From UHGV virus genome UHGV-0191815: DNA of 53,795 nt; one strand, given 5' to 3'. Position numbers and translations under genes: made by a program. This document shows, in pieces, positions 11,925 to 25,078 of the stretch (its first letter is position 1; the number at the start of each line of letters is the position of its first letter). Below the pieces are notes generated by a model. It saw only the letters and a list, made by a program, of their open reading frames with translations. It did no database searches and was not told the DNA's origin. The DNA is from a virus.

Positions 11925-12056
11925 TGTAATTTCTCCGTAAAACGCGCTACAACGCAAAAATCCCACCGCGTAACCCGATTGCACAGGTTGCAGTGTTTTA
12001 TTGCGTCAGATGCGCTTTTAGGTGGCTAATTTTTGATTTACAGACTGATATGAAGG

Positions 12057-12158
12057 TTATGGATTGACGAGAAGGAACAAACCGCCGAACAAAGCGACGT
12101 TAACAGCGATTGCAGCAGCGATGGCAAAAGCCAGGGCGAAAACGTGTTTACCGTCCAT
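12057..12158 (-). CDS. Putative 33-aa transmembrane peptide
   Basis: MDGKHVFALAFAIAAAIAVNVALFGGLFLLVNP; short hydrophobic ORF in an otherwise non-coding gap. Confidence 0.3.
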   Translation of the reverse strand: MDGKHVFALAFAIAAAIAVNVALFGGLFLLVNP

Positions 12159-12186
12159 TTTCAAAATCCTCTCTAAAACGCTCTCT

Positions 12187-12242
12187 AGCGAGCTAAATAG
12201 CTAAAGGTATGCAAGTGTAGCACCACATGCGATTTAGCTCGC
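12187..12242. repeat. 12-bp perfect inverted repeat (agcgagctaaat ... atttagctcgct) separated by 32 bp
   Basis: Read directly from the sequence; lies between the antirepressor and the replication initiator gene. Confidence 0.5.
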
Positions 12243-12292
12243 TGGTGAGCTTGTTTTGCGGGTAATTTTTGATTTTTGCGGATCGTGGTTGG

Positions 12293-13345
12293 TCAAAGAG
12301 CGCCTGCGCGTGTATCACGTAGCGTTTTTGGTTTAAGCAGGAAATCAAGTGTCGCAGTGAAGCCATCGCCGAAGTAAAAATCTGAAGCATTGTTTTTGAA
12401 CGTTTCAAAGTAGGCGACAAAGCCGTTAATGCTTTTGTCTTTCAGGTAGTCGGTGAACGCGTAGATCTTGCGTTCAAGATCCCGATCCAGTTCGGCAGGT
12501 GGCAACAGGCCATCAAACGTGCTGTTAAATGCCTCCACTACGTCGGCAGCGTTTGCAGTGGCTGACAGGTTGCGCCATTTTTCAGCATCAGCCAGATACC
12601 CATCAAATTTAGTTACCCGGCAAATGTTAACAGGCTTAGGAGTTCCGCCACGACTACGCCATTGCGTTAAAGCCCACTCAATCACTAATGTGATCTCATC
12701 CTCTGTGTATGCTTTACGTGTTTTTGTTTCTGTCAGTAGTTCTGTAAATGGCTTGGCATCACGACATTTGCATCCTGCCTTGTCGTTGTAGAAGGCCAGG
12801 CAACGCAACGCCGCTTCGTTTATGCCATCATGACTGACTGTTTTTTGTTCACTTTCGACAATACACGTAGTGTATATATCTTTTTCTCTTTCTTCTTCTT
12901 CTTCTAATTCTAATTCATGACCCTTTCCTGACCCGGTCATGACCCTATCATGACCTTTTTGTGTTGGATTGATTAACTTTTCTAATTTTAATTGTTCCTT
13001 CGCTGTGTTTATTGCTGCCCTATATGCGCTTTTAGAAGTCATTGATTGGTCCAGCCTTTTTAATAACTTTAAACAAGTTATGTGGCCCTGAGAACATTCA
13101 AACAAACCAATTTCGATGAAGTATTTCATCATTTCTTCTATACGTTTTTCAGTCGATCCGACGTTTCGCGCAATGATTCTCGCGTCATGTCGTAGGTCAA
13201 AAGTCAGATTATGCTGATCTACGTCATAAGTTATTAGTTCGAGGCAATACCAATAAAGCCCGTACCCTTCCAGGCCATAATCTAACAAAACGTTTTGAAG
13301 TTTTTCATCGCGGTTAGCATCGCTATCGTGCTTAAACCACTTCAT
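12293..13345 (-). CDS. Replication initiation protein (replisome organiser, DUF4373-like N-terminus)
   Basis: N-terminus MKWFKHDSDANRDEKLQNVLLDYGLEGYGLYWYCLELI is typical of phage replication initiators; RBS ggagg; iterons lie inside the gene. Confidence 0.7.
   Translation of the reverse strand: MKWFKHDSDANRDEKLQNVLLDYGLEGYGLYWYCLELITYDVDQHNLTFDLRHDARIIARNVGSTEKRIEEMMKYFIEIGLFECSQGHITCLKLLKRLDQSMTSKSAYRAAINTAKEQLKLEKLINPTQKGHDRVMTGSGKGHELELEEEEEREKDIYTTCIVESEQKTVSHDGINEAALRCLAFYNDKAGCKCRDAKPFTELLTETKTRKAYTEDEITLVIEWALTQWRSRGGTPKPVNICRVTKFDGYLADAEKWRNLSATANAADVVEAFNSTFDGLLPPAELDRDLERKIYAFTDYLKDKSINGFVAYFETFKNNASDFYFGDGFTATLDFLLKPKTLRDTRAGAL
12915..12955. repeat. Candidate origin of replication: four iterons (tcatgaccc / tcctgaccc) with exact 11-bp phasing, next to a polypyrimidine/AT tract
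   Basis: Iteron starts at 12915, 12926, 12937 and 12948; flanking tract tttttctctttcttcttcttcttctaattctaatt (12875-12912); sits in the linker region of the initiator gene, as in lambda O. Confidence 0.55.
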
Positions 13346-13348
13346 AGA

Positions 13349-13603
13349 TCATTCCTCCGGCAATGCAATATCATAAATTTCGCCGTATTCGTCAGCGCGT
13401 TTAATGAATCCTTTGCGGATTAATGAGTTTAATGCGTCAACAGTAGTATGCAGTGGCAGTTCGCAGACTTTTGCGATCTCTTCGCGTGAAGCATGTGCGC
13501 GGCCCTTGTTGTCTGCCTTTTCTGCAAACGCCATTAAGACAATTTTTTGAATCGGGCTGTTAAGTTTTACGTTCCATGCTTTGCTAATCATGTTCATACT
13601 CAT
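13349..13603 (-). CDS. Small HTH DNA-binding protein, first gene of the minus-strand early operon (Cro/CII-like position)
   Basis: MSMNMISKAWNVKLNSPIQKIVLMAFAEKADNKGRAHASREEIAKVCELPLHTTVDALNSLIRKGFI; RBS aggag 9 nt upstream of this ATG; divergent from the repressor gene. Confidence 0.55.
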   Translation of the reverse strand: MSMNMISKAWNVKLNSPIQKIVLMAFAEKADNKGRAHASREEIAKVCELPLHTTVDALNSLIRKGFIKRADEYGEIYDIALPEE

Positions 13604-13909
13604 TGTGTTTTCTCCTATGGTTAAAATGAACGCGCTGGCGGGCATCCCATTATCATTAGATAGCAGTGATTGACCGCTGAACAGATCCCGCCGTTGCGTG
13701 ATATTTGTTTTTCGCATTGCAGCGACACCTGGTTTTTAAAGAGCTTTCAAGGTATGTGCCATTTGTGCTTTCCATTATCTTTTTTCTTGCATCCTTGCAA
13801 CTATGGCCTTACCTTGTCAGCAAGTTTACAGAATGTTGTTAATAGATCAAGGATTGAAAAATACATTTTGTGACTTGCATCAAAAATTTTTAGGTTATAG
13901 GGTAGCGAT
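13604..13909. promoter_or_regulatory. Divergent immunity-region control region (candidate operators and promoters for the repressor gene and the minus-strand early operon)
   Basis: About 300 bp non-coding between divergent HTH genes; contains atacattttgtgact (13861-13875), the palindromes ttgca-tcct-tgcaa and cttg-tcag-caag, and the nut-like element. Confidence 0.5.
13713..13750 (-). promoter_or_regulatory. nut-like element on the minus-strand transcript (boxA-like GCTCTTTAAAAA + hairpin CGCTGCAATGCG)
   Basis: Reverse complement reads agCTCTTTAAAAAccaggtgtCGCTGCAATGCG; near-identical to the plus-strand element at 22441-22474. Confidence 0.45.
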
Positions 13910-14557
13910 ATGAAAACAAAATGGTATGACTTGGCAAAACAACTCATGCGGGCGCAAGGCATGAGCCAGGATTCATTGGCTGATCTTATGGGGATAACCA
14001 AAGGTGGCCTTTCTCACTGGTTGAACGGTCGCCGTGAGCCGAATCTTGAAGATATTACGCGGATCATGCGGGCGCTTGGGCGTCGGCAATTCACTGTTAC
14101 TCATGATGGTATGGTCATTGATGATTCTGTTTCTAACACGTTGCCGGGAGCGCCACCGCGTGATTTAGGTAGTTACCCGGTTGTTGACTGGAAGGACGCA
14201 GCAAACAATATGGAAGACATACGCCGATCAACATTACCACACGTTACGACTAGCGTTATTTGTTCAGATGATAGTTACTGGCTGGTTGCTAAAGGTGAAT
14301 CAATGAACGCGCCGCAAGGGTTAAGCATCCCGGCGGGTACTATGATACTTGTTGACCCGCACGCGCCAGCTATTGATGGCAAACTGGTTATAGCCCAACT
14401 GGAGGAAGGGCAGACACCGACGTTTAAACAGTTGATTACTGATGGAGGCAGAAAACTTTTGCGTTCACTTAATCCGTTGTATCCTCCGATCCCTATGAAT
14501 CCAGAATCAAAAATCATTGGCGTGGTTGTTGATGCGAAGATCGTAAACCTGCCATAA
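13910..14557 (+). CDS. CI-like prophage repressor (HTH_XRE N-terminal domain + LexA-like S24 peptidase C-terminal domain)
   Basis: HTH (SQDSLADLMGITKGGLSHWLNGRR); C-terminal S24-type region (...LVAKGESMNAPQGLSIPAGTMILVD...KLVIAQLEEGQTPTFKQL) with Ser and Lys catalytic context. Confidence 0.85.
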   Translation: MKTKWYDLAKQLMRAQGMSQDSLADLMGITKGGLSHWLNGRREPNLEDITRIMRALGRRQFTVTHDGMVIDDSVSNTLPGAPPRDLGSYPVVDWKDAANNMEDIRRSTLPHVTTSVICSDDSYWLVAKGESMNAPQGLSIPAGTMILVDPHAPAIDGKLVIAQLEEGQTPTFKQLITDGGRKLLRSLNPLYPPIPMNPESKIIGVVVDAKIVNLP

Positions 14558-14562
14558 ACATT

Positions 14563-14587
14563 AGCCGCCCGGTGGCGGCTTTTCTTT
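14563..14587 (+). terminator. Terminator after the repressor gene
   Basis: Stem agccgcc / ggcggct followed by tttcttt. Confidence 0.5.
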
Positions 14588-14679
14588 GCCATAAAAACGC
14601 CAAAACGTAAACAGAAAACCGTGTTTATTGTTTAAATATCAATGGCTTATAAATTTTATAAAAAAGTATACAAAATGTG

Positions 14680-14708
14680 TTGACTGGTGTTTTTACGTGG
14701 CGTATATT
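14680..14708 (+). promoter_or_regulatory. Sigma70-type promoter for the plus-strand early operon (PL-like), with an operator-like sequence abutting the -35
   Basis: -35 TTGACT (14680-14685), 17-bp spacer, -10 TATATT (14703-14708); gTATACAAAATGTG lies at 14666-14679. Confidence 0.6.
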
Positions 14709-14962
14709 GCGAATCAAAGGAAGGATGCAGGTAACAAAATCAACTTCCTGGCACTTTAAAAATCAGGCTTAACACCTTGTCAACCGTGGAGTAACTCCCC
14801 GATGGGGGACCGAAAGCGGCACTGATAACAAGGCGCATGGGGTGTTTAAAGCGTTACATCCCCCACGAAACCGCACGCAAGGCGACGAGTCAGCTTGCTT
14901 GGAGTGAGCAGGGTCACACCGGAAACGGCGATGATTGCGGGATTAGTTGAAAGATGTTAAGC

Positions 14963-15000
14963 CATTCTTTAACAATCTGGTCAGCCGCTGGAAGTGCGGC
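14963..15000 (+). promoter_or_regulatory. nut-like site: boxA-like (cattCTTTAACAAt) followed by hairpin GCCGC-tggaagt-GCGGC
   Basis: Lies in the roughly 340-nt leader between the promoter and the first early gene; boxA resembles the rrn/lambda boxA consensus. Confidence 0.45.
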
Positions 15001-15056
15001 AATTAACGAAGATGATTTTTTATTAAGTATCATCAAGGATATAAGGAGATCAGATC

Positions 15057-15347
15057 ATGGCAGTTACAATCATGTATGGCAAATGTGACAGTAAACTGAA
15101 TGCCAGGGAACGCAGAAGAATAAAAAGAGAAAACGAAAGAAAATCATCACCTGCAATTAATAAAACAGACAATGTGGATAAAGCTATTCGCTTTGCAAAC
15201 GAGGAAAGATGCAAACCAAATAGCATTAAAGAACATCGCAAAGGAGCAACAAAATGGTATGCGGAAAGTGAAAGCGGAAACTACTTCCACGCAACGCAAC
15301 CGCGCCAGCTTGGTGAAATCCCGCTAGACAAAGTTCGATACCATTAA
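15057..15347 (+). CDS. Putative N-like transcription antiterminator (arginine-rich motif protein)
   Basis: 96 aa; N-terminal arginine-rich motif NARERRRIKRENERK; first gene after the promoter and nut-like site; RBS aaggag. Confidence 0.45.
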   Translation: MAVTIMYGKCDSKLNARERRRIKRENERKSSPAINKTDNVDKAIRFANEERCKPNSIKEHRKGATKWYAESESGNYFHATQPRQLGEIPLDKVRYH

Positions 15348-15377
15348 TACATATCGTAAACAATATGAGGTGACGTT

Positions 15378-15500
15378 ATGGTTATTAAGGCGCTTCAATT
15401 CAAACTGGCGGTAGCGGAAATGCTTCACGATGCCGAAATGTGGAGCGCCGCGAATAAAGCCTTGTATGTAGTGTTAACAGCGAAGGAGATTAAAGAGTGA
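15378..15500 (+). CDS. Hypothetical small protein (40 aa)
   Basis: MVIKALQFKLAVAEMLHDAEMWSAANKALYVVLTAKEIKE; RBS gaggtga; stop overlaps the erf GTG start. Confidence 0.4.
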   Translation: MVIKALQFKLAVAEMLHDAEMWSAANKALYVVLTAKEIKE

Positions 15501-16138
15501 AAACAGAGTTACACAAAAAGCTGTGGACGATTCAACAAACGTTGAACGCTCCGAAAAATCAGCGTAATAATTTTGGTGGGTACAATTACAGATCGGCGGA
15601 GGATATTTTGGAGGCGGTTAAGCCACTTCTTCAAAATATAACGCTGACTGTTAGCGATGAAATCGTCCTGATCGGCAATCGCTATTATGTGAAAGCCACT
15701 GCCACACTAAGCGACGGAGAAGATGAAATTGCGGTAACTGCTTACGCCAGGGAAGAAGAAAGCAAGAAGGGAATGGATGCAAGCCAGCTAACTGGCGCGA
15801 CATCAAGTTATGCTCGTAAATACGCGTTGAACGGGTTGTTCTGTATTGACGATGCGCGAGATCCTGATACTGACGCATACGCTAAGCAGACAGGCCAGCA
15901 GCCTCGCCAACAGAAAAACCCACCAAAACAACAACCACAGCAGCAGAAAGCGCCGCCAAATCCTGATGAAGTGTTAGCGCGTTTCTGTGATGCGGCAGCG
16001 AAAGCGCCGGACGCTAACAAGTTGCGCGAGATATTCGGGAAGTGCTGGAAGCTACTTCCTAAAGATTCAGAGCAGCAACAGAAAGCCAAAGACGTTTATG
16101 ATATTCGCTTAAAAGAGATTAACGGGGAGATCGGTTAA
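15497..16138 (+). CDS. erf: Erf-family single-strand annealing recombinase
   Basis: Strong collinear similarity to P22 Erf: LNAPKNQ..FGGYNYRSAEDILEAVKPLL...DEIVLIGNRYYVKATAT..DGE...REEESKKGMDASQLTGATSSYARKYALNGLFCIDDA. Confidence 0.85.
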   Translation: MKTELHKKLWTIQQTLNAPKNQRNNFGGYNYRSAEDILEAVKPLLQNITLTVSDEIVLIGNRYYVKATATLSDGEDEIAVTAYAREEESKKGMDASQLTGATSSYARKYALNGLFCIDDARDPDTDAYAKQTGQQPRQQKNPPKQQPQQQKAPPNPDEVLARFCDAAAKAPDANKLREIFGKCWKLLPKDSEQQQKAKDVYDIRLKEINGEIG

Positions 16139-16608
16139 TGAGCTTAAATTCAATCACGCTGGGCGGTAATATCGGAAATGATATGGAAGTTCGCCACACG
16201 CAAAACGGTAAAGCTATTGGTAGCTTTCCGTTAGCTGTAACGAATGGCTACGGTGATAATAAAAGGACTATGTGGATCACTTGCCTGGTATTTGGCGAGC
16301 GCGCTGAAAAAATAGCGCCACATATTCGTAAGGGTGGAAAAATAGTGGTAAGCGGTCGCCTGGATGTTCGGCAATATGACCGGAACGACGGCACGAAGGG
16401 GACTGCGGTGGAAGTGGCTGTCAATGAGTTCGAATTCATGAACGTTAACCAGCAAGGCCAGCAGCAAGGCCAACAGCAGAAAGCGCCACCGCAGCAGCAG
16501 AGTAATAACGGTGGATATAAAGAACCGCCAATGGACTTCGACGATGATATTCCATTTGCTCCTGTAGGGTTACAATATGGCAAAAGCAGGATCTACGCGC
16601 TATCTTGA
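16138..16608 (+). CDS. ssb: Single-stranded DNA-binding protein
   Basis: OB-fold N-terminal region (ITLGGNIGNDMEVRHTQNGKAIGSFPLAVTNGYGD), Gln-rich linker, acidic C-terminal tail DFDDDIPF. Confidence 0.85.
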   Translation: MSLNSITLGGNIGNDMEVRHTQNGKAIGSFPLAVTNGYGDNKRTMWITCLVFGERAEKIAPHIRKGGKIVVSGRLDVRQYDRNDGTKGTAVEVAVNEFEFMNVNQQGQQQGQQQKAPPQQQSNNGGYKEPPMDFDDDIPFAPVGLQYGKSRIYALS

Positions 16609-16870
16609 TGCGCCGCCGATTCCGCGAACAAAAGAGCAAGTTCTCAAAGAAGCCCGTGATCAAATCGATCATGGGCTTTTTTTATGCGGCACGGCAGCGG
16701 AACGGATGGCAAAAAGATTTAGTGACCTGTACGCAAAGCAAATATGGTTCGACAACTGGCAGGCAAGTTTTTATCCACTACAAAGAAAACCGGATATGCA
16801 CTGGCCTGAATATGTCGATCCACGTATGCGCAAATATCGCGGGCGTATGGGCCAGGTCATTAACGATTAA
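16577..16870 (+). CDS. Hypothetical protein (start uncertain; 5' end overlaps ssb)
   Basis: ORF continuing the operon. Confidence 0.35.
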   Translation: MAKAGSTRYLDAPPIPRTKEQVLKEARDQIDHGLFLCGTAAERMAKRFSDLYAKQIWFDNWQASFYPLQRKPDMHWPEYVDPRMRKYRGRMGQVIND

Positions 16871-17109
16871 TGAGGTATCAAATCATGATCGAGGAAAAAG
16901 AAGTTGATAAGGAAATGCCTGACACAGCAGATGACTACGTTACTTTTGATGGTGGCCTGTATGAGTTCGATACGTCGGCTGGGTGGACTGATAAGTGGCC
17001 TCTTCCTACTCGCCAGGAACTAATGGCGCGCAAATCATTCGGCGAAGATGCGGAACGCCTTGCCAATAACAAGTGGCTTAACAAGTTTATTGCGGAGGGT
17101 GGAAAATGA
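16870..17109 (+). CDS. Hypothetical protein (79 aa)
   Basis: ORF with ATGA overlap to the next gene. Confidence 0.45.
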   Translation: MRYQIMIEEKEVDKEMPDTADDYVTFDGGLYEFDTSAGWTDKWPLPTRQELMARKSFGEDAERLANNKWLNKFIAEGGK

Positions 17110-17219
17110 ACCTTGCAAAAATTGCCGCACTGATTGCGGCCTTGTCTGTCGCTGTTGTGTATCTCAGCGTATCTCTTTATATCACGGTAGCGATCATTAA
17201 ACTTATTACTAACATGTGA
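17106..17219 (+). CDS. Small transmembrane peptide (37 aa)
   Basis: MNLAKIAALIAALSVAVVYLSVSLYITVAIIKLITNM; ATG overlaps the upstream stop. Confidence 0.4.
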   Translation: MNLAKIAALIAALSVAVVYLSVSLYITVAIIKLITNM

Positions 17220-17228
17220 GGCCAAATC

Positions 17229-17348
17229 ATGAAAGTCGGTAAGGATATTGTGACGGTCGCGTTTTGCATTATTTGTTTCCTGTTTGTGGTTGTGTTTTGC
17301 GGCGGATTTGCTGCGTTGGTTAGTCTTATTTTCAGGGGGCTGTTGTGA
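17229..17348 (+). CDS. Small transmembrane peptide (39 aa)
   Basis: MKVGKDIVTVAFCIICFLFVVVFCGGFAALVSLIFRGLL; stop overlaps the next start (TGATG). Confidence 0.4.
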   Translation: MKVGKDIVTVAFCIICFLFVVVFCGGFAALVSLIFRGLL

Positions 17349-17620
17349 TGAAAACATGGGATGCAAAGGCTGGTGATCTTGTCGTGTTGCCTGAATATCG
17401 TAATGACCCCGGCCTGGTTGTGCTTAACAGATCTGATTGCAATATGGCCCGTCCGATTCTGGTCAGATATTTGGATGGGGTGATTATAGTTCCAGTTTAC
17501 TTTGCTCGAATTGAGCTAATGGCCCGCAATGTTCGCGTTAAGCCGTTCCGGGCTTATGTTGAAGATCACTGGCGGAAATTGTTCGCCGGACTGAATGGGA
17601 TGTACGGCGTATGGCTATAA
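17348..17620 (+). CDS. Hypothetical protein (90 aa)
   Basis: ORF in translationally coupled series. Confidence 0.45.
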   Translation: MKTWDAKAGDLVVLPEYRNDPGLVVLNRSDCNMARPILVRYLDGVIIVPVYFARIELMARNVRVKPFRAYVEDHWRKLFAGLNGMYGVWL

Positions 17621-17802
17621 AATTGGTGAAGGTCAAACACCTGAAAGGCGGCGAAAAATTAATGTCATGGTGGGGGTATGAATTTATCGCCACTGCCTTT
17701 CATTTCGGACCAGGGGGCCAGGTGACAATTTTTGATGAAGATTTCGACGAGGTGGGGCAGTGGCATCTTGAGCAATATATCGAGGTGTTAGATGAAAATT
17801 AA
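17611..17802 (+). CDS. Hypothetical protein (63 aa)
   Basis: ORF in coupled series. Confidence 0.4.
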   Translation: MAIKLVKVKHLKGGEKLMSWWGYEFIATAFHFGPGGQVTIFDEDFDEVGQWHLEQYIEVLDEN

Positions 17803-18124
17803 ATTTCATAAAGCGTATGACGCTGAAAGTAACAAGCTGTCGCTATTTATTGAGTTCGAGCGCCGGATCGTGGTTGTTCCTTATGCGCGTCGCTTCAATG
17901 ATGCGGCAGGGCGGCGGCAGTTCGCGTTAGATATGCTGTTACGTGGCTGCGGCCTTATGCGCCCGCTATCTGATTTGAAACGGATGATGCCTGGATCGTT
18001 CGGTCAGATTGATGAAATTGAAATAAGCAAGGAAGAGCTAAACCGGGCGCGTGATTTGTTCCTTTCAAGCGAAGGAAACCCGTTTAATCCAGAAACTGAA
18101 ATGAGATGGCATCACCCACTATAA
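17792..18124 (+). CDS. Hypothetical protein (110 aa)
   Basis: ORF in coupled series. Confidence 0.45.
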   Translation: MKIKFHKAYDAESNKLSLFIEFERRIVVVPYARRFNDAAGRRQFALDMLLRGCGLMRPLSDLKRMMPGSFGQIDEIEISKEELNRARDLFLSSEGNPFNPETEMRWHHPL

Positions 18125-18137
18125 AAGGACAAATATC

Positions 18138-18758
18138 ATGAAAGACATCAAAACAGCTTATTCACTCGGCAGCGATGGCATGTTAATCACTCGTTACACT
18201 GAAGACGCAAGTTATCATGAAGTTGAAACGAAGGATTATCACGAAGTGATTAAAGATATGGAATCTGGCGCGTATGACGCAGATTTGAACCTGGCGTTGC
18301 AGGTTGCTGATATTGTTATGGATGCGTCGATGCGCGATTATGTGTCTTTAGACGCTGAAGAAAAAACTGCTATAGCTCGTTATGTCTTCTGCCTCACTTT
18401 CGTGAAACGCATGGAAGAGGAATATGGTCGCGTGCCAGTGCCGGAAGATCTTGATCCTCTGGCGTTCGGTAGTGCTGTTATCTTCCCGTTAGATGAAAAC
18501 CGCATGGTTAGCGCTGCACTGTATTCTGTGCGCGGTGTGATGAAGAAAATATTTGAGGCCAAAGCGCTACAGAAGTGCATTGATGAAGGGCACAACGAAG
18601 AAGACGTAAGAGCAATCATGCCGATGTTTTATGGCGAAATGGTTGATATTAACATGCGTGCGAATGATTTAGGCGTGCAGGCGGTAATAAGCGTGCTTAA
18701 TGAAGCGCGTAAAATGGCACAGCCAATGCCTGAACCTGAAAAGCGCGTACTCCATTAA
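18138..18758 (+). CDS. Hypothetical protein (206 aa)
   Basis: Long ORF with RBS; no recognisable motif. Confidence 0.55.
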   Translation: MKDIKTAYSLGSDGMLITRYTEDASYHEVETKDYHEVIKDMESGAYDADLNLALQVADIVMDASMRDYVSLDAEEKTAIARYVFCLTFVKRMEEEYGRVPVPEDLDPLAFGSAVIFPLDENRMVSAALYSVRGVMKKIFEAKALQKCIDEGHNEEDVRAIMPMFYGEMVDINMRANDLGVQAVISVLNEARKMAQPMPEPEKRVLH

Positions 18759-18857
18759 TATTGTGATTGCGATTACATAACTATACGTTTTGTGTTGTGA
18801 TCGCAAATCCGTTTTGTAAACTGAAATCGAAAGGTTTACAGCACGGAGGGAAACAAG

Positions 18858-19076
18858 ATGGCACGCGAATTGATGCTTTATTGCGTAGAAGGTGGCGTGG
18901 GACATGATTCCTACGTCGCCGGGAAAAGCTATCCAGCAGATGAAGTGCTTTCTAATATGCACTTCCGGGAAAATGAACAACAGGTGTCTGTATGGAAGCG
19001 GTGCGCTGATGGCGTTGAGATAGTCAGCCTTGAAAGATATTTGGGCAAATTTGACTACGCATTGTTCGAGGCTTAA
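18858..19076 (+). CDS. Hypothetical protein (72 aa)
   Basis: ORF with RBS ggaggg. Confidence 0.45.
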   Translation: MARELMLYCVEGGVGHDSYVAGKSYPADEVLSNMHFRENEQQVSVWKRCADGVEIVSLERYLGKFDYALFEA

Positions 19077-19167
19077 CTATGGACGATTCATTGCTATTTA
19101 TGTGCATTTGCTGGGGTTTTATTGCCTTATGCCTGTTTGTCAGATGGTTTATTGAATATCACATGAG

Positions 19168-19365
19168 GTGATCTATGAAAAGGTTGGCGAATACATGATA
19201 CCGGATAACGCTAAATTAGCCGGAATCGGTCAATTTGGTTGTTATTACTATAACTGCGTAGGTGATATTTATCAGGTCAGTATTGTTGGTGGTGTACAAC
19301 ATTTTCGTCTTATGCACTTTGAATTAAGCGCACTTAAAAAGGCGGTGTTAATGTATGAAGTTTAA
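19168..19365 (+). CDS. Hypothetical protein (start uncertain)
   Basis: ORF; possible GTG or internal ATG start. Confidence 0.35.
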   Translation: MIYEKVGEYMIPDNAKLAGIGQFGCYYYNCVGDIYQVSIVGGVQHFRLMHFELSALKKAVLMYEV

Positions 19366-19558
19366 ACAGTACAAAGACTGGAAGATTCCAGAAGAAGCAA
19401 CAAAGGCAGCGCCCGGAATTTTTTCGGGCGTTTATTTTTATATGGAAGGTAAATGGTATTTCGGCAGCAGGCCGGATCATTATTATCAAGAATTATGCAA
19501 GTCTCACACATGGGATATTAAGGAACGCGTGCAAGGTGGTGTAATAGACGAGGTTTAA
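19355..19558 (+). CDS. Hypothetical protein (67 aa)
   Basis: ORF in coupled series. Confidence 0.4.
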   Translation: MKFKQYKDWKIPEEATKAAPGIFSGVYFYMEGKWYFGSRPDHYYQELCKSHTWDIKERVQGGVIDEV

Positions 19559-19559
19559 A

Positions 19560-19796
19560 ATGGTTAAGTGTTTTTTAAACTGGTTAAAGACGTGGCTTTT
19601 GTGTACGCTTCGTGTTTTTTTGGTGTTCGGTTGCGCTATCGTCGTATTTACGCTGGGTGTGATGTTTGTTACATGGTCAGTTCCTGAATTTAACGACATT
19701 GATGGTATTCTTTTTACGGTGCGTGTTTTATTGGCTGTTAGCGCATTCATTGGTTTTTGCTGGACTGTAGCGCCTGATTGGGAAGATGAATGGTGA
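19560..19796 (+). CDS. Small integral membrane protein (78 aa, 2-3 predicted TM segments)
   Basis: Hydrophobic stretches LLCTLRVFLVFGCAIVVFTLGVMFV and LLAVSAFIGFCWTV. Confidence 0.45.
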   Translation: MVKCFLNWLKTWLLCTLRVFLVFGCAIVVFTLGVMFVTWSVPEFNDIDGILFTVRVLLAVSAFIGFCWTVAPDWEDEW

Positions 19797-20034
19797 TCCT
19801 ATGGCTTTGTTTAATATGTCAGAGCCGCAATTCAACGCCGTAAAAACTGCCGCGCGTGCGGCGCTTTCTGCCTGCAAAGCAGAGGCGGAAAGAAACGGCT
19901 ACAGCGATAAAGCTACGCGGCTGATATTAGAAAAGCATTATCGCAAGGTCGCCCCGCTAATCAGCATTGAGCGTTTTGTGTGGTTGGTTGGGTATCTCAA
20001 TAATAGATGGGGGACTGACCAGGATTATTTTTAG
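19786..20034 (+). CDS. Hypothetical protein (about 80 aa)
   Basis: ORF in coupled series. Confidence 0.4.
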   Translation: MNGDPMALFNMSEPQFNAVKTAARAALSACKAEAERNGYSDKATRLILEKHYRKVAPLISIERFVWLVGYLNNRWGTDQDYF

Positions 20035-20042
20035 TGGGGGTA

Positions 20043-20585
20043 ATGATGAAAAATGATTTCGGAGGCAGCAACACGCCAAAGGAAATTAAAGACCTGTGGC
20101 AGACGCCAAAACCAGTATTCAGGGGAATGGATCGTGAGTTCGAATTCGTCGCTGACGTTGCGGCAAATAAGGAAAATGCGCTAGTTCCGCGATATATAAC
20201 CGAAGAAATGGACACGTTGCATTATCCGTGGGGAGCGGTGGCAATGCCTGGTGATTATGTGTGGATGAATCCGCCATACTCAAATCCGGGTCCATTTGTT
20301 GATAAAGCTGCGCTCGAACATCAACGGAATCACATCGGTTGCGTGATGTTGTTGCCCGCTGACATTTCTGTTAGCTGGTTCATGAACGGCGTTGAGACGG
20401 CAAACGAGTGCCGATTGGTAACGCGCGGGCGGCTGGCGTTTATTAATGCTGCGACTGGTAAGCCAGTAAGCGGAAACAACAAAGGCAGCTTGTTTTTGAT
20501 CTGGCATCCACGGTGCAAACATGAATGCATTTTTACTCACATAACACGTAAAGAGCTATATGCAAGAGGTGCAGATAATGACTAA
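20043..20585 (+). CDS. Phage-type DNA N6-adenine methyltransferase (Dam family)
   Basis: Catalytic NPPY motif (YVWMNPPYS) and overall layout of small phage Dam methyltransferases; RBS ggggg. Confidence 0.75.
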   Translation: MMKNDFGGSNTPKEIKDLWQTPKPVFRGMDREFEFVADVAANKENALVPRYITEEMDTLHYPWGAVAMPGDYVWMNPPYSNPGPFVDKAALEHQRNHIGCVMLLPADISVSWFMNGVETANECRLVTRGRLAFINAATGKPVSGNNKGSLFLIWHPRCKHECIFTHITRKELYARGADND

Positions 20586-21075
20586 TGCAGCAGATTTACT
20601 ACGACTTGCAGCGGAAACAATAGAGCAAAGGGGCAAACAAAACGGATACGACAGAAAGCAGGAAAAATCAGCGCCTAAAATAGCCACTATATACAACGCT
20701 AAGAAGGGAGCAAATTTAACCCCACTTGATGTATGGGATCTGATGATTTGTCTTAAGGAGGCGCGTTTAGAGGCCATTTTAGCCAATGGCAGCGATCCTA
20801 CTGACACTTTAGTTGACCTAATCAGCTACAGCGCACTAAAAGCTGAGCAAATATTGAATAATCGGGATGAAGAGTTAAAGAAAAATAAGTTCACTGAAGA
20901 CAATATTAATGATGGAATAATAAATGACGCAGCAATAACAAGCTGTAAGGGATTGCCACCTTCAATGCTTAACCCTCAATGCGGTTGTATTTCAACTCGG
21001 CTTGATTTTAATTTCAAAAGATCTGAGGCTATTCGCGATAAGAGGTATGACCCAAATGAAGAAGGTGACAATTGA
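20578..21075 (+). CDS. Hypothetical protein (165 aa)
   Basis: ORF between the two methyltransferase genes. Confidence 0.45.
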   Translation: MTNAADLLRLAAETIEQRGKQNGYDRKQEKSAPKIATIYNAKKGANLTPLDVWDLMICLKEARLEAILANGSDPTDTLVDLISYSALKAEQILNNRDEELKKNKFTEDNINDGIINDAAITSCKGLPPSMLNPQCGCISTRLDFNFKRSEAIRDKRYDPNEEGDN

Positions 21076-21559
21076 CAGGTTATTGGCCTGCGTTTATGTC
21101 GCCGTTTTCGTGATCATCAACCTCATTGTTAACCATTGCGGCCCGTGTGTAATTCCGATCACTACGGTAGCCGCAGTGTGTGTAAATATGATGATCCGCG
21201 ACTTTTTGTTATATGACGGCGGTATTAAGTGGTCGGCTACAACATGCGCAGCCGCTGGCGCAATCACGGTAATGATAAATTACGATGCGGGAATGGTGGC
21301 AATTGCGTCATTTGTCGCGGTTGTTTCCGGTGCGCTTATTTCTGGCTGTGTTTACCGTGTTTTGCCTGGTGATTTCGATTCTAAGCGCTGGCCTGCAAAT
21401 ATAGCTTCAGCCATCGGGGATGCGCTGATTTTTCCCACGCTGTCGTTCATGGCGTTTATGCCGGAAATATCAGCCATGCAATTCATCTCAAAAATGGCAG
21501 CGGTGACAGTGATCACTATCATCATGCGCCGCTATTTCACGTTTGAGGGAAGAAAATGA
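21056..21559 (+). CDS. Integral membrane protein (about 4 TM segments)
   Basis: MKKVTIDRLLACVYVAVFVIINLIV...; multiple hydrophobic helices; RBS aagagg. Confidence 0.5.
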   Translation: MKKVTIDRLLACVYVAVFVIINLIVNHCGPCVIPITTVAAVCVNMMIRDFLLYDGGIKWSATTCAAAGAITVMINYDAGMVAIASFVAVVSGALISGCVYRVLPGDFDSKRWPANIASAIGDALIFPTLSFMAFMPEISAMQFISKMAAVTVITIIMRRYFTFEGRK

Positions 21560-22344
21560 GAAAGGCTAAACACTGGTTAAATAATTGGCTAAGAAACTGG
21601 GTTGTGTGGTCGCTGTACGACGGCAGCGGGTACGCCGTTAAAGACTGGGCGGAAGCGGGATATAAGTGCTATTGCTTCAACTATGACGGCGCAAATCACG
21701 GCGATTATGAAGGCGTTAAAATCATTCACCCGAATATTGAATACGTTAACGTATGGATTGATAGTCACTTCCTGGTGATGTTCTCGCCTGAATTGTCTGT
21801 TTATCCAGAGCCTGATATTATCCTGGGCTTCCCGCCGTGCGACGATCTCGCCGTGTCTGGCGCTCGCTGGTTCGCTGATAAACGGAAAAAAGATCCTGAC
21901 TTCCAGGTGAAGGCGGCTAATAGCGCAAAACTGGTAGAAAAGCTGGCGAATATGCACAACGTGCCGTGGATGGTGGAAAATCCGGTGGGAGCACTGTCAA
22001 CGCTATGGCGTAAACCGGATTTTATCTTCAATCCTTGCGCTTACGGTGGCTACCTTCCGGAAGATGACAAACATCCTGCCTTCCCTGAATACATAGCCGC
22101 CCGCGACGCATACACGAAGAAAACTTGTATTTGGTGCGGCAACGGATTTAAACAGCCGCTGTTTCGGCCTGTACCAATGCCGGACGAATTGGAAGACAGT
22201 AAACAGCACGCTAAGTTAGGAGGAAAGTCAAAGCGCACTAAGATGATCCGCTCACTAACGCCGCGAGGCTTTGCCCGTGCTGTATTCCTGGCTAACGACA
22301 GGGCCATCAATCGTAATACGCTCAACAGCGTTTTACCGGACTGA
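21556..22344 (+). CDS. Putative DNA (cytosine-5) methyltransferase
   Basis: Motif I-like LYDGSGY, motif IV-like GFPPCDDLAVSG, motif VI-like ENPVGAL. Confidence 0.55.
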   Translation: MRKAKHWLNNWLRNWVVWSLYDGSGYAVKDWAEAGYKCYCFNYDGANHGDYEGVKIIHPNIEYVNVWIDSHFLVMFSPELSVYPEPDIILGFPPCDDLAVSGARWFADKRKKDPDFQVKAANSAKLVEKLANMHNVPWMVENPVGALSTLWRKPDFIFNPCAYGGYLPEDDKHPAFPEYIAARDAYTKKTCIWCGNGFKQPLFRPVPMPDELEDSKQHAKLGGKSKRTKMIRSLTPRGFARAVFLANDRAINRNTLNSVLPD

Positions 22345-22366
22345 AATTTACAAAATGGCGTCATTG

Positions 22367-22382
22367 TGTGATTTGTGTCACA
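22367..22382. promoter_or_regulatory. Perfect palindrome TGTGA-tttgtg-TCACA (CRP-consensus-like, or a phage operator)
   Basis: Read directly; lies just upstream of a candidate promoter. Confidence 0.4.
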
Positions 22383-22398
22383 TAATGGCGCTTTTCTT

Positions 22399-22427
22399 CT
22401 TGTTTACGTGTATCCATTTTGTATACT
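22399..22427 (+). promoter_or_regulatory. Candidate internal promoter (-35 cttgtt, -10 TATACT)
   Basis: -10 TATACT at 22422-22427 with a 17-bp spacer; overlaps ccattttgtatac, a copy of the recurring motif. Confidence 0.35.
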
Positions 22428-22440
22428 GCAAACAAAATAA

Positions 22441-22474
22441 ACGCTCTTTAAAAATCCGGTGGCGCTGCAATGCG
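22441..22474 (+). promoter_or_regulatory. nut-like element: boxA CGCTCTTTAAAAA + hairpin CGCTGCAATGCG
   Basis: boxA matches lambda nut boxA (CGCTCTTA) closely; the whole element is near-identical to the minus-strand copy at 13713-13750. Confidence 0.45.
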
Positions 22475-22502
22475 TAAAAGTCACATGAAAGGAGTGTGAG
22501 CT

Positions 22503-22679
22503 ATGTCTTTCGATTATTACCAATGGCATGACGACTATGAACGAGAAAGCGTCATGCGTGCGATGTGCAACATGTGCGATACGAAGAAAGGAGAATGTAA
22601 CGAGTGCAACGAGTGTTTAGATCATTGGCTAAAGGCCGGACGCGACGAAAGGCGGAGCGAAACAGAAAATCAAAAATAA
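22503..22679 (+). CDS. Small Cys-rich protein (58 aa), possible zinc ribbon
   Basis: MSFDYYQWHDDYERESVMRAMCNMCDTKKGECNECNECLDHWLKAGRDERRSETENQK; under 60 aa so absent from the ORF track. Confidence 0.4.
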   Translation: MSFDYYQWHDDYERESVMRAMCNMCDTKKGECNECNECLDHWLKAGRDERRSETENQK

Positions 22680-22693
22680 TAGGGGTGATTTTT

Positions 22694-23305
22694 ATGCAAA
22701 ACCCTAAGAAACCAATCAGAAGGCGATGCAAATGCTGTGGCGCTTTCTTCGAACCTAAATACCACAATCAAACGTGGTGCAGTGATGACTGCCTGGATCA
22801 ACTTAAGTTCGAACAGCTATGCCGTGACCGTGAAAACGCAATGAAGGCGATTGAACGGAAAAAGCGCCGCGACAGCCAGCGGGAAGAGCGCAACCGGAAG
22901 CGGAAGGAGAAGCAGTTACACCCGCGAAGCTACTGGATACACCAAGCACAAACTGTATTTAACGCATACATCCGCGAACGTGATGCGGGGCAACCGTGTA
23001 TATCTTGCGGTACTTACTACGGTGATCAATGCGGTTGGGATGCCGGACATTACAGGACAGTAGCGGCAGCAGGACATCTTCGATTCAATGAAGATAACGT
23101 GCATCGTCAATGCAAACACTGCAATCAGAGACTGGACGGCAACATAGGAGGGTATCGCCCAGCACTGATTAGAAAAATTGGCCTTGCCAGGGTGGAAGTG
23201 CTGGAGAACAACAACGAAGTTCACAAATGGACTATCGAAGAATGTAAGGAGATCGCAAAAGTTTATCAGGCTAAGTTAAACGCCTTAAGGAGAAAGGCAG
23301 CATGA
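22694..23305 (+). CDS. ninG: NinG (Rap) recombination endonuclease
   Basis: Collinear similarity to lambda NinG: RRRCK.C...F......WCS..C...PRSYWI.QAQ...NA.IRERD...PCISCGT....QCGWDAGHYRT.AAA..LRFNE.N.H.QC..CNQ; start at ATG 22694 with RBS aggggtga. Confidence 0.85.
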   Translation: MQNPKKPIRRRCKCCGAFFEPKYHNQTWCSDDCLDQLKFEQLCRDRENAMKAIERKKRRDSQREERNRKRKEKQLHPRSYWIHQAQTVFNAYIRERDAGQPCISCGTYYGDQCGWDAGHYRTVAAAGHLRFNEDNVHRQCKHCNQRLDGNIGGYRPALIRKIGLARVEVLENNNEVHKWTIEECKEIAKVYQAKLNALRRKAA

Positions 23306-23709
23306 ACGAGTATACATTTAGCCTACCATACCCGCCATCGAACAACCGCTATTACCGACATTCACGCGGTATTCACTATATCAGCAAGGTTGGGAAAGAA
23401 TACAGGGAGCAAGTAAAAGACATCATCGAGCTATTAAATTTAAATATTAACCTGCCTTGCCGACTGGCAATAGCCATTTATGCCGCGCCGCCGGATAACC
23501 GGATCAGAGATCTGGATAATATCCCCAAATGCCTTTTTGATAGCCTTACTTATGCCGGATTCTGGAAGGATGACGGACAAATCGACGCAATAAAAATTGT
23601 TCGCTGCCAGAAGATAAAAAGCGGGCGCTTGTTTATTAAGGTACGCGAGCGCGGCGACCTGCTACCTGACATTGACGAATACGCGACTAATATGTGGGGT
23701 GACAAATGA
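23302..23709 (+). CDS. rusA: RusA Holliday junction resolvase
   Basis: LPYPPSNNRYYRHSRG....S..G..YR...........IAIY..PPDNRIRDLDNIPKCLFDSLTYAGFWKDDGQI matches E. coli / lambdoid RusA. Confidence 0.85.
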   Translation: MNEYTFSLPYPPSNNRYYRHSRGIHYISKVGKEYREQVKDIIELLNLNINLPCRLAIAIYAAPPDNRIRDLDNIPKCLFDSLTYAGFWKDDGQIDAIKIVRCQKIKSGRLFIKVRERGDLLPDIDEYATNMWGDK

Positions 23710-23888
23710 AAAACGAAATTAAAGATCTGCAAATAGATATTCAGCGCGACGAGCATGATTTAGAAACTGTGCGACAAATACAGGCTTTCCACATGCGAGA
23801 ATTGCTTGCGCTGAAAGAGCTTGAAAGAAAGCTAGTGCAGGCAATATCTGATCGCAAAAGACTGGTTGCGCGTTACTGGGGGAAATAA
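23706..23888 (+). CDS. Hypothetical protein (60 aa)
   Basis: ORF in coupled series. Confidence 0.4.
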   Translation: MKNEIKDLQIDIQRDEHDLETVRQIQAFHMRELLALKELERKLVQAISDRKRLVARYWGK

Positions 23889-24616
23889 TGAATCTGGAAT
23901 CAATTCTTAAATTCCACTTCCCAAAATCGCCGCGTTTATCAGATGAAAGCCGTGGTACGTCCCCGGATGCGCTTAATACTACGGATGCACTAACTGCCGC
24001 AGGTATGGCGCAATCGCGCGTAGAGCTTGGTTACAGTGCTTTTTTGGGGAAGATGGAACTATCACAAGCCGAAAAACATAAGGCCGTAGTTTTGCTTATA
24101 GAGCGCTTAAAGGCTATGGCAAAAGATTATGAATACGTTATTGAACTGGACGAGGCAAAACGCAATGATCTCATTATTCTTGTTGCCGTTTTCGCGTTTC
24201 GGGATTATTGCCAGAGTGCAGCGACCGAAAAAGTTTGCCCTAAGTGCGGCGGCAACGGGCTTTTACCAAATCCATATTGCGAATACACATCGACAGTTTG
24301 TTCGCGGTGCGGCGGCAAAGGCTACGTTAAAAACCATTGCCAACGTTGCAAGGGGCGCGGCGAAATACCGGATAAAGCAGCCAGTGAAGCGGCGGAAATG
24401 CCAGTGTTCAAAACGTGCCAGCACTGCGGCGGGCGCGGGTACTCGCGTTTCCCTGTAGATCTTGTCCGGCAGGCTGTTAATCAGCTTGTATTTCCGGTAA
24501 GCCGATCAACATGGTGGAAGAAATACCGCGCTTTCTATGAAGACGCCATTGCTGAGTTGTTCAAAGAAGAGGCGCGGGCTGACAACGAAATAAAACGAGT
24601 GACGCGGGGTGAATAA
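23888..24616 (+). CDS. DnaJ-type zinc-finger protein; possible late-gene regulator (Q-like position)
   Basis: Four CxxCxGxG repeats (CPKCGGNG, CSRCGGKG, CQRCKGRG, CQHCGGRG); located after ninG-rusA where lambdoid phages carry Q; function not established from sequence. Confidence 0.4.
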   Translation: MNLESILKFHFPKSPRLSDESRGTSPDALNTTDALTAAGMAQSRVELGYSAFLGKMELSQAEKHKAVVLLIERLKAMAKDYEYVIELDEAKRNDLIILVAVFAFRDYCQSAATEKVCPKCGGNGLLPNPYCEYTSTVCSRCGGKGYVKNHCQRCKGRGEIPDKAASEAAEMPVFKTCQHCGGRGYSRFPVDLVRQAVNQLVFPVSRSTWWKKYRAFYEDAIAELFKEEARADNEIKRVTRGE

Positions 24617-24816
24617 TGGATAAGCTGGAAATAAACGATCAGTTTGCTGTTATCTTGTTCGAAGATAAAACTGGCGGCGCATGGTGTAAGAAAGTAACTG
24701 GCGCGGAAGCGCGTTTAATATTGGGTATGGCAAGCGCGTTAAATGAAGGCGAATTGCCAGCCATCCCTATTAAGCCTGTCAAAATTTACAAGCGTGGTGA
24801 CGATAATGAAGCCTAA
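24616..24816 (+). CDS. Hypothetical protein (66 aa)
   Basis: ATG overlaps the upstream stop; first gene of the small-gene block. Confidence 0.45.
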   Translation: MDKLEINDQFAVILFEDKTGGAWCKKVTGAEARLILGMASALNEGELPAIPIKPVKIYKRGDDNEA

Positions 24817-25078
24817 ATTAAAAGAACATATTTACCGCCAGTTGATTAACGAGCTTGCGGATACAGCCCGATATTACGCAGGAACACAACAGCTACGCGG
24901 GCGGCTATCTTCGGTTGTTAACCGCTATATTGATGCCGGATGTCATCGCAAAGGTGAAATCACGATGGACGAGGCCATCAAGCGCCGGACGGCTGAATGG
25001 TCAGTGAGTAACACCGGATTAACCGGATACATTGAAGGCTATAACGACTGTTTACAGGATCATAGCGATGGCAAGTAA
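24806..25078 (+). CDS. Hypothetical protein (90 aa)
   Basis: ORF in coupled series. Confidence 0.45.
   Translation: MKPKLKEHIYRQLINELADTARYYAGTQQLRGRLSSVVNRYIDAGCHRKGEITMDEAIKRRTAEWSVSNTGLTGYIEGYNDCLQDHSDGK

Follow-up and report, generated by a model that had tools for sequence, protein, structure and literature searches.

Coliphages of the mEp021 ("mEpimmI") group need host Nus factors (PMC11893012). Their experimentally characterised early antiterminator, Gp17, is described as lambda N-like and as acting on three sites, nutR1, nutR2 and nutL, in the account given in PMC11893012, which cites Valencia-Toxqui et al. 2023 (Arch Virol 168:92). The summary in that source (Front Microbiol 2025) also reports that Gp17 antiterminates and is needed for downstream transcripts. 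The gp17 gene is found in all 48 genomes of the group, with Arg17, 19, 20 and 24 of its product fully conserved and Arg21 present in 45 of 48; nutR1 precedes gp17, nutR2 follows the gp32 methyltransferase gene and nutL lies upstream of the repressor gene (PMC11893012). Here, we analysed UHGV virus genome UHGV-0191815, a stretch of 53,795 nucleotides (nt) called the window below, and in particular its 96-amino-acid (aa) open reading frame (ORF) at 15057..15347 (+ strand). The data point to a processive antiterminator of the lambda-N/P22-gp24 type, orthologous to mEp021 Gp17, that would work by the lambda N paradigm. We put the probability of this reading at roughly 93%.

The gp17-like gene and its arginine-rich motif

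The ORF opens with an ATG preceded, 7 nt on its 5′ side, by an AAGGAG ribosome-binding site (RBS; 15044-15049). The product has an isoelectric point of 9.8 and carries NARERRRIKRENERK at residues 15-29 (codons at 15099..15143, + strand), with 6 Arg and 2 Lys within 15 residues. This arginine-rich motif (ARM) was delineated from the translation, its conservation in the family, a predicted helix and an alignment with P22 gp24. The coding sequence was annotated as that of an N-like antiterminator from the ORF scan, the identity to mEp021_17 and a match to phrog_271. A preliminary description had proposed a 96-aa ORF with such a motif at residues 15-29 and no other recognisable domain. The ORF scan and the translation bore out the former, and Pfam, which gave no domain at its curated threshold, agreed with the latter. 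Stretches of 15 residues with 6 or more R and 8 or more R+K are rare in the window: of the ATG-ORFs that reach 60 aa, counted over all six frames (n = 161), only this one and a NinG-like protein contained one.

Region 14560-15500 is 90-92% identical to seven phage records (mEp021, mEp515, mEp010, mEp554, mEp044, mEp013 and MagusPhagus), and the first 25 kb of the window show about 89-91% identity to the same seven phages over 63-74% of this 25-kb length. Because of these matches, the window is assigned by its sequence to the mEp021 group, whose members are non-lambdoid coliphages that are temperate and depend on Nus factors. The 96-aa protein has the same length as mEp021_17 (Gp17), to which it is 91.7% identical over 96/96 residues. 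None of the eight substitutions (A2T, S56G, H60R, T65V, A69T, S71N, F77Y and I88K, window residue first) falls in residues 3-55, and the ARM is identical. R17, R19, R20, R21 and R24 are all present, as in the published Gp17 family (PMC11893012). Synteny with mEp021 is also identical (repressor, leader, gp17, kil-like, Erf, SSB). As in the Gp17 group, the S24 repressor gene and nutR1 precede the gene, kil-like, Erf and SSB genes follow it, nutR2 lies past the methyltransferase gene and nutL before the repressor gene. We regard the 96-aa gene as the orthologue of mEp021 gp17. The N-like antiterminator of the group being already known, the protein is not new. The MagusPhagus counterpart is already annotated 'anti-termination protein N-like protein', and the exact 96-aa protein is deposited as DAK70789.1, 'MAG TPA: hypothetical protein [Caudoviricetes sp.]'.

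In PHROGs, residues 2-95 of the protein matched phrog_271 ('anti-termination protein N-like') with E = 6.8e-11, a value to be read with the caveat that mEp021-like sequences may themselves belong to that PHROG. P22 gp24 and lambda N (taken from BK000583 and J02459, respectively) matched the same PHROG at 7e-40 and 4e-23. Alignment showed that the N-terminus and the ARM run parallel to those of P22 gp24 (MAVTIMYGKC..LNARERRRIKRE vs MTVITYGKS..GNAKTRRHERRR), NARERRRIKR of the window being aligned with NAKTRRHERR of gp24 within NAKTRRHERRR. The internal position of the ARM, which the preliminary description had singled out, is accordingly no peculiarity, since the ARM of gp24 sits at the same position; the presence of the motif itself stands. 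The gene for gp24, too, heads an operon that includes kil, erf and abc-type genes. The overall identity to gp24 is nevertheless only about 27%, and in its C-terminal half the window protein shows no relation to gp24 and comes closer to lambda N.

The resemblance to lambda N (PF11438 N36; phrog_271) concerns the ARM core, [ND]-A-x-x-R-R-x-x-[RK]-R, and a C-terminal W-Y...G...Q...G..PL pattern. At the C-terminus, RKGATKWYAESESG..GEIPLD aligns with lambda RKNQRTWYSKPGERG..GKSIPLI, a likeness with no statistics independent of the PHROG match. The RNA-polymerase-interacting C-terminal region of lambda N spans about residues 73-107. Two differences are that the ARM of lambda N begins at residue 1 instead of residue 15 and that the window ARM has no equivalent of Trp18. 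In a family alignment of 34-35 sequences (65-100% identity), N15, A16, R17, R20 and R24 were invariant, as was the block W67-Y68..E72-S73-G74..Q81..P89-L90, and R19 and R21 were at least 90% conserved. The C-terminal block is the most conserved part of the Gp17 family.

AlphaFold2 run with the family alignment returned a mean predicted local distance difference test (pLDDT) score of 59 and a predicted template-modelling (pTM) score of 0.24. A helix at residues 16-30 was modelled at a pLDDT of about 72-74 and the rest with low confidence. Lambda N is intrinsically disordered, and the low confidence outside the modelled helix is consistent with the disorder expected of an N-type protein.

A profile search of 1.84 billion representatives gave 5 matches and shows the family to be very small; two of the matches, large repeat-containing proteins with a short partial match, were treated as spurious. 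One clear remote relative was found, P0055 (115 aa; L089 4660-4850, metagenome contig ERZ27253218 k141_244742). Its surroundings are syntenic (S24 repressor, N-like gene, 39-aa ORF, Erf, SSB), and upstream of it lie its own boxA, GCTCTTTAACAA, and a CGCU-GAAA-AGCG boxB hairpin. By its sequence, P0055 takes the family outside the mEpimmI group of E. coli phages. Another candidate, P0053 (44% identity), was rejected as a divergent homologue; it is a frameshifted copy, read in the +1 frame after residue 24.

Three nut sites and their pairing with the motif

Each nut site of the window consists of a boxA of the CTCTTTAA[AC]AA type, a spacer of 7-8 nt and a short G+C stem capped by a GNRA-like loop, and is oriented with transcription. 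This boxA-spacer-boxB layout is that of lambda, and the window's phage group further resembles lambda in its reported Nus dependence (PMC11893012). P22 has two nut sites as against three here, and its boxB loops are GACAA, as opposed to GNRA-type loops flanked by U.U or U-A.

In nutR1, a boxA-like sequence, CATTCTTTAACAA, was recognised at 14963..14975 (+). It is followed at 14984..15000 (+) by the boxB GCCGC-UGGAAGU-GCGGC, with a fold of -8.6 kcal/mol (z = -2.6). Relatives carry CGCTCATTAACAA or TGCTCTTTAACAA as nutR1 boxA, CGCTCATTAACAA being the form of mEp021 as compared to CATTCTTTAACAA in the window; we take TGCTCTTTAACAA to be the E. coli rrn boxA consensus. BoxA and spacer of nutR1 resemble P22 nutR, CGCTCTTTACCAATCTGAAC. 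Set side by side, lambda nutL reads CGCTCTTAAAAATTAA-GCCCTGAAGAAGGGC, P22 nutR reads CGCTCTTTACCAATCTGAAC-... and window nutR1 reads CATTCTTTAACAATCTGGTCA-GCCGCTGGAAGTGCGGC.

The other two sites were located by exact-pattern search, with folding of the boxB elements. nutR2 (22442..22475, +), downstream of a methyltransferase-like ORF, comprises the boxA CGCTCTTTAAAAA at 22442..22454 and the boxB G-CGC-UGCAAU-GCG-U at 22462..22475. nutL (13712..13744), read leftwards on the - strand upstream of the repressor gene, comprises the boxA GCTCTTTAAAAA at 13744-13733 and the boxB U-CGC-UGCAAU-GCG-A at 13725-13712. There are exactly two copies of the 12-mer CGCTGCAATGCG in the window, one at 22463-22474 (+) and one at 13713-13724 (-), and exactly two of GCTCTTTAAAAA, each 8 nt upstream of a copy of CGCTGCAATGCG. 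The hairpins at 14984-15000, 22463-22474 and 13713-13724, which the preliminary description had offered as targets of an N-like protein, are thus real, and folding, pattern search and published positions identify them as nutR1, nutR2 and nutL. It had also placed the gene behind a PL-like promoter and a nut-like site. A promoter-like and a nut-like site do lie upstream and the gene content is PL-like, whereas in the published naming the operon is rightward and the site is nutR1.

We compared the sites with those of about 48 relatives (IMG/VR contigs, E. coli prophages and sequenced phages), in which all three keep their relative positions. The nutR1 stem varies by compensatory changes (GCCGC/GCGGC, GCUAC/GUAGC, UGCAC/GUGCA). 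The outermost pair of nutR2 is G.U, C-G or A-U, and nutL has U-A at that position. BoxB loops are GNRA-like (GAAA, GCAA, GCGA) with U.U or U-A at their flanks; in the main class, nutR1 has the loop UGGAAGU. In most relatives the nutL hairpin is UCGCU-GCGA-AGCGA, and mEp021 has the nutL loop UGCGAA where the window has UGCAAU. Separately, nutL and nutR2 of the window share an identical 12-mer with a UGCAAU loop, whereas in nearly every relative the loops differ, nutR2 having UGAAAU and nutL UGCGAA; the identity in the window may reflect gene conversion between the two sites.

The variants of nutR1 are paired with variants of the ARM. The ARM NARERRRIKRENERK goes with the nutR1 boxB GCCGC-UGGAAGU-GCGGC, and the variant NAR[KA]RRRMKRAAEQD goes with a UGAAAU-loop nutR1, either GCUAC-UGAAAU-GUAGC or UGCAC-UGAAAU-GUGCA (relatives L005-L007 and L050-L052). 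The class-B ARM peptide reads NARKRRRMKRAAEQD. These pairings hint at a partial co-evolution of ARM and boxB. The nutL and nutR2 types are common to both ARM variants. Because two ARM variants with different nutR1 boxB share these types, the pairs suggest an N protein that tolerates several loop types, namely the 7-nt UGGAAGU loop and GNRA tetraloops closed by U.U or U-A.

Proposed mode of action and its alternatives

The scheme best supported by the gene, motif, homology, nut anatomy, conservation and covariation computed here is as follows. The early promoter at about 14680-14708 would drive transcription of the gene. Its small, largely disordered product would then bind, through an arginine-rich helix (about residues 15-30), boxB of the nascent nutR1, nutR2 and nutL RNA, and the adjacent boxA would recruit host NusB/NusE. 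With NusA and NusG, the complex would remain on RNA polymerase. For antitermination activity, ARM dependence and Nus dependence, the scheme follows what the literature on the orthologue, as summarised in PMC11893012, reports. The order of assembly is taken from lambda N, and by the same analogy the conserved C-terminal half (KWY..ESGNY.HATQPRQLGE.PLD) would make the polymerase resistant to terminators. Terminators of the roughly 9.5-kb rightward operon and of the leftward replication operon would thereby be overcome, and read-through would give access to the recombination, methylase, NinG/RusA and Q-like genes and so to the lytic programme.

Several points weigh against this reading. The family model PF25694 (N_peptide) was matched below threshold, at 16.9 bits as compared to a curated cut-off of 27.9, and in Pfam the protein gave no match to PF11438 N36. 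The same sub-threshold PF25694 match was obtained for 33 of 35 family members, about as strongly as for lambda N itself. Failing this threshold says little because lambda N fails it too: P22 gp24 scores 6e-45 and lambda N only 0.013, PF25694 being essentially a P22 gp24 model that does not span the N family. No N chain of the PDB was retrieved by sequence search or by the family profile, which gave no matches at all, and the sequence matches to MESH1/HDDC3 (E about 0.04) and to a designed repeat protein were set aside as chance. The N peptides in the PDB are too short or too divergent to score. By eye, we recognised no segment like the NusA-binding region of lambda N. At the RNA level, the nutR1 boxA of the window (CAUUCUUUAACAA) departs from the GCUCUUUA core, and the boxB loops UGGAAGU and UGCAAU differ from the pentaloops of lambda and P22. 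Finally, the evidence for activity belongs to the orthologue, from which the translated window allele differs by 8 substitutions, all outside the predicted ARM. The 2023 study reportedly used nut-terminator-GFP plasmids, arginine mutants and a gp17 deletion phage. As used here, the experimental claims on Gp17 rest on their summary in PMC11893012.

An arginine-rich protein can also act in the opposite sense. HK022 Nun, a small ARM protein that binds boxB as well, terminates transcription on heterologous nut sites, HK022 itself antiterminating by means of put RNA. The 96-aa protein might accordingly be an exclusion factor that attaches to the boxB of other phages, lambdoid ones, and ends their transcription, the more so as its phage shares GNRA-type boxB loops with lambdoid phages. 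This would fit poorly with a genome that has three cognate nut sites in its own early transcripts, before terminators, and with a nutR1 boxB that co-varies with the ARM variant. The gene is moreover first in a lytic early operon and not prophage-expressed, and in the summary of PMC11893012 the orthologue is characterised as antiterminating and as needed for downstream transcripts. Rfam scans of the window detected no put-like elements, a weak negative, since Rfam may lack a put family. A Nun-like role is therefore very improbable.

We also considered that the protein, small and basic, could bind nucleic acids in some other early role, for instance as a translational regulator or a host take-over factor, its N-like ARM having been arrived at by convergence. 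Arginine-rich stretches are information-poor, the family is tiny and restricted, and no significant Pfam domain anchors it. The PHROG match, however, spans the whole protein and not only the ARM, the C-terminal motif is held in common with lambda N, and the nut sites and the synteny agree with an N-like function, as does the function published for the orthologue according to the summary in PMC11893012. Convergence seems about as improbable as a Nun-like role. Small size is the only feature that would suit a chance ORF in a long leader. Against it stand the strong RBS, a full-length conservation with invariant blocks over more than 50 clusters (65-100% identity) and a synteny held even in the remote relative P0055; because of this conservation, a chance ORF can be dismissed almost entirely. 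The N-like antiterminator is thus the interpretation that we retain, supported by the 91.7% identity to mEp021 Gp17, the phrog_271 match and the three nut sites, in agreement with the preliminary description. Its value is one of annotation: DAK70789.1, a 'hypothetical protein', can be named as an N-like early antiterminator and its three nut sites marked.

The leader block and the operon context

Between the promoter and nutR1 lies a conserved, GC-rich and apparently non-coding block of ~225 nt (14737..14962, +), delimited by its presence or absence and by identity among relatives. The distance from the -35 hexamer to the gp17 ATG is 377 nt in the window and most relatives, and 139-165 nt in about ten that do not have the block. 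The block is present or missing as a unit. It is missing in the viable relatives mEp013, mEp044 and mEp554, among others, and is absent upstream of P0055. Where present, its mean identity is 98%, as compared to 89-91% for the repressor, gp17, erf and ssb genes and 86% for the upstream intergenic region. It is still about 94-95% identical in a lineage with a 75%-identical Gp17 and a different nutR1 boxB.

Across plasmids, GTDB species representatives, IMG/VR and 31 complete E. coli genomes, the block is confined to mEp021-like genomes. It gave no match in plasmids, and a 35-mer of it had none in GTDB species representatives. A 20-mer match in an Acutalibacteraceae metagenome-assembled genome of GTDB had no flanking similarity and was put down to chance. 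In IMG/VR, the block was found only in contigs carrying the Gp17 gene. It is single-copy in the 31 complete E. coli genomes, which excludes a dispersed repeat or miniature inverted-repeat transposable element, and the Prokaryotic Genome Annotation Pipeline (PGAP) left it without annotation there. Rfam had no match in the whole window at gathering thresholds, and when 14600-15100 was scanned by E-value, nothing came up but a snoRNA match devoid of meaning (E = 0.48). A hammerhead-like CUGAUAA...CGAAAC in the block was rejected, the essential G of CUGAUGA being missing and Rfam giving no match.

RNAalifold predicted a closed multi-branch domain with a closing helix, GGCUUAACA / UGUUAAGCC, between a boxA-like GCACUUUAAAAA and the nutR1 boxA. 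Compensatory changes were seen in one predicted hairpin only (CUUGCU/AGCAAG vs AUCACU/AGUGGU), and the z-score of the single-sequence fold, -1.2, is unremarkable. A fourth boxA-like sequence, GCACTTTAAAAA (14751-14762, +), has 1 mismatch to the boxA of nutR2 and nutL. It lies about 40 nt past the promoter, with 3 nt between it and the 5′ strand of the closing helix, and no obvious boxB follows it. If formed, the predicted closing helix would bring two boxA-like sequences together.

The mEp021 annotation places a hypothetical protein of 37 aa, 'gp16', inside the block at 14837-14950 (+), between promoter and gp17. This ORF is probably not coding, because substitutions among relatives are mostly non-synonymous, a 1-nt insertion breaks the frame in relative L007 and PGAP called it in none of the 31 complete E. 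coli genomes. PMC11893012 mentions neither the block nor gp16, and its sole 'leader' is a lipoprotein signal peptide and not an RNA leader. The block could act as a regulatory RNA in the leader, or be no more than a module that has spread recently. That it is an undescribed RNA element is a tentative idea and rather doubtful; as such, it could modulate in cis how the antitermination complex assembles or how gp17 is expressed, or it could give rise to a small RNA from the leader. Together with the ARM/boxB variant pairs, the block could inform on how N-type complexes assemble and how their specificity evolves.

The putative early promoter, TTGACT-17-TATATT (14680..14708, +), is the best sigma-70 match (10/12) within 12000-25000. 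It is kept in all relatives, lies upstream of the 96-aa gene on the same strand and, judging by its position, would drive the gp17 operon. Further upstream, Pfam identified the repressor gene (13910..14557, +; HTH_3 and Peptidase_S24), the counterpart of mEp021 gp15/Rep021. A terminator scan found a terminator-like hairpin after it (14563-14580, +), the counterpart of mEp021 TERM_1. Copies of ACAAAATGT / ACATTTTGT adjoin both promoter regions that flank the repressor gene (about 14671 and about 13862; regions 14640-14715 and 13745-13909) and may be operator half-sites.

Rightward of gp17, the gene content (kil-like, Erf, SSB, anti-RecBCD) is like that of the lambda/P22 PL operon. Unlike lambda cI, the S24 repressor gene points the same way as the N-like operon, and the recombination and nin/Q genes lie in a single rightward operon whose second nut site is 7.5 kb downstream. 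The locus confirms that a group of coliphages which is prevalent in the gut and not lambdoid uses an N/nut/Nus system of the lambda type in a different operon layout, marked by the co-oriented repressor gene and the distant second rightward site.

Pattern scans of the rightward operon gave three terminator-like hairpins on the + strand. The one at 17124..17140 is a candidate target of antitermination; mEp021 has an annotated TERM_2 after gp22, which may or may not be its counterpart. Two strong ones with T-runs are presumed to function as terminators, at 19408..19432 (11 pairs, tail TATTTTTATA) and at 22357..22392 (16 pairs, tail TTTCTTCTTG), the latter about 50 nt upstream of nutR2. By eye, a weak promoter-like TTGTTT-16-TATACT that the scan had missed was seen between the 22357-22392 hairpin and nutR2 (22357-22440). 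It is possible that nutR2 is loaded either on read-through transcripts or on transcripts from a local start. Beyond nutR2 lie NinG, RusA and a Q-like late antiterminator gene (23888..24616, +; Pfam PF03589 Antiterm, E = 1.8e-31). Expression of the Q-like gene would depend on read-through from the early operon, which would therefore be a precondition for late gene expression. The Q-like protein also carries a DnaJ-type CXXCXGXG zinc-finger region.

Two small features adjoin gp17. The lambda N leader has an RNase III hairpin. Here, an AT-rich hairpin, GATGAT-(12 nt)-ATCATC (15013-15036, +), lies between the nutR1 boxB and the gp17 RBS, is largely conserved in the main class and could, by analogy, affect gp17 translation. 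Directly 3′ of gp17, a 40-aa ORF (15378-15500, +) weakly matches lambda Kil (PF06301 at E = 1.8e-4, below the cut-off; phrog_2055 at E = 9e-4) and strongly matches phrog_34942, whose function is unknown; the ORF may encode a division inhibitor of the Kil type.

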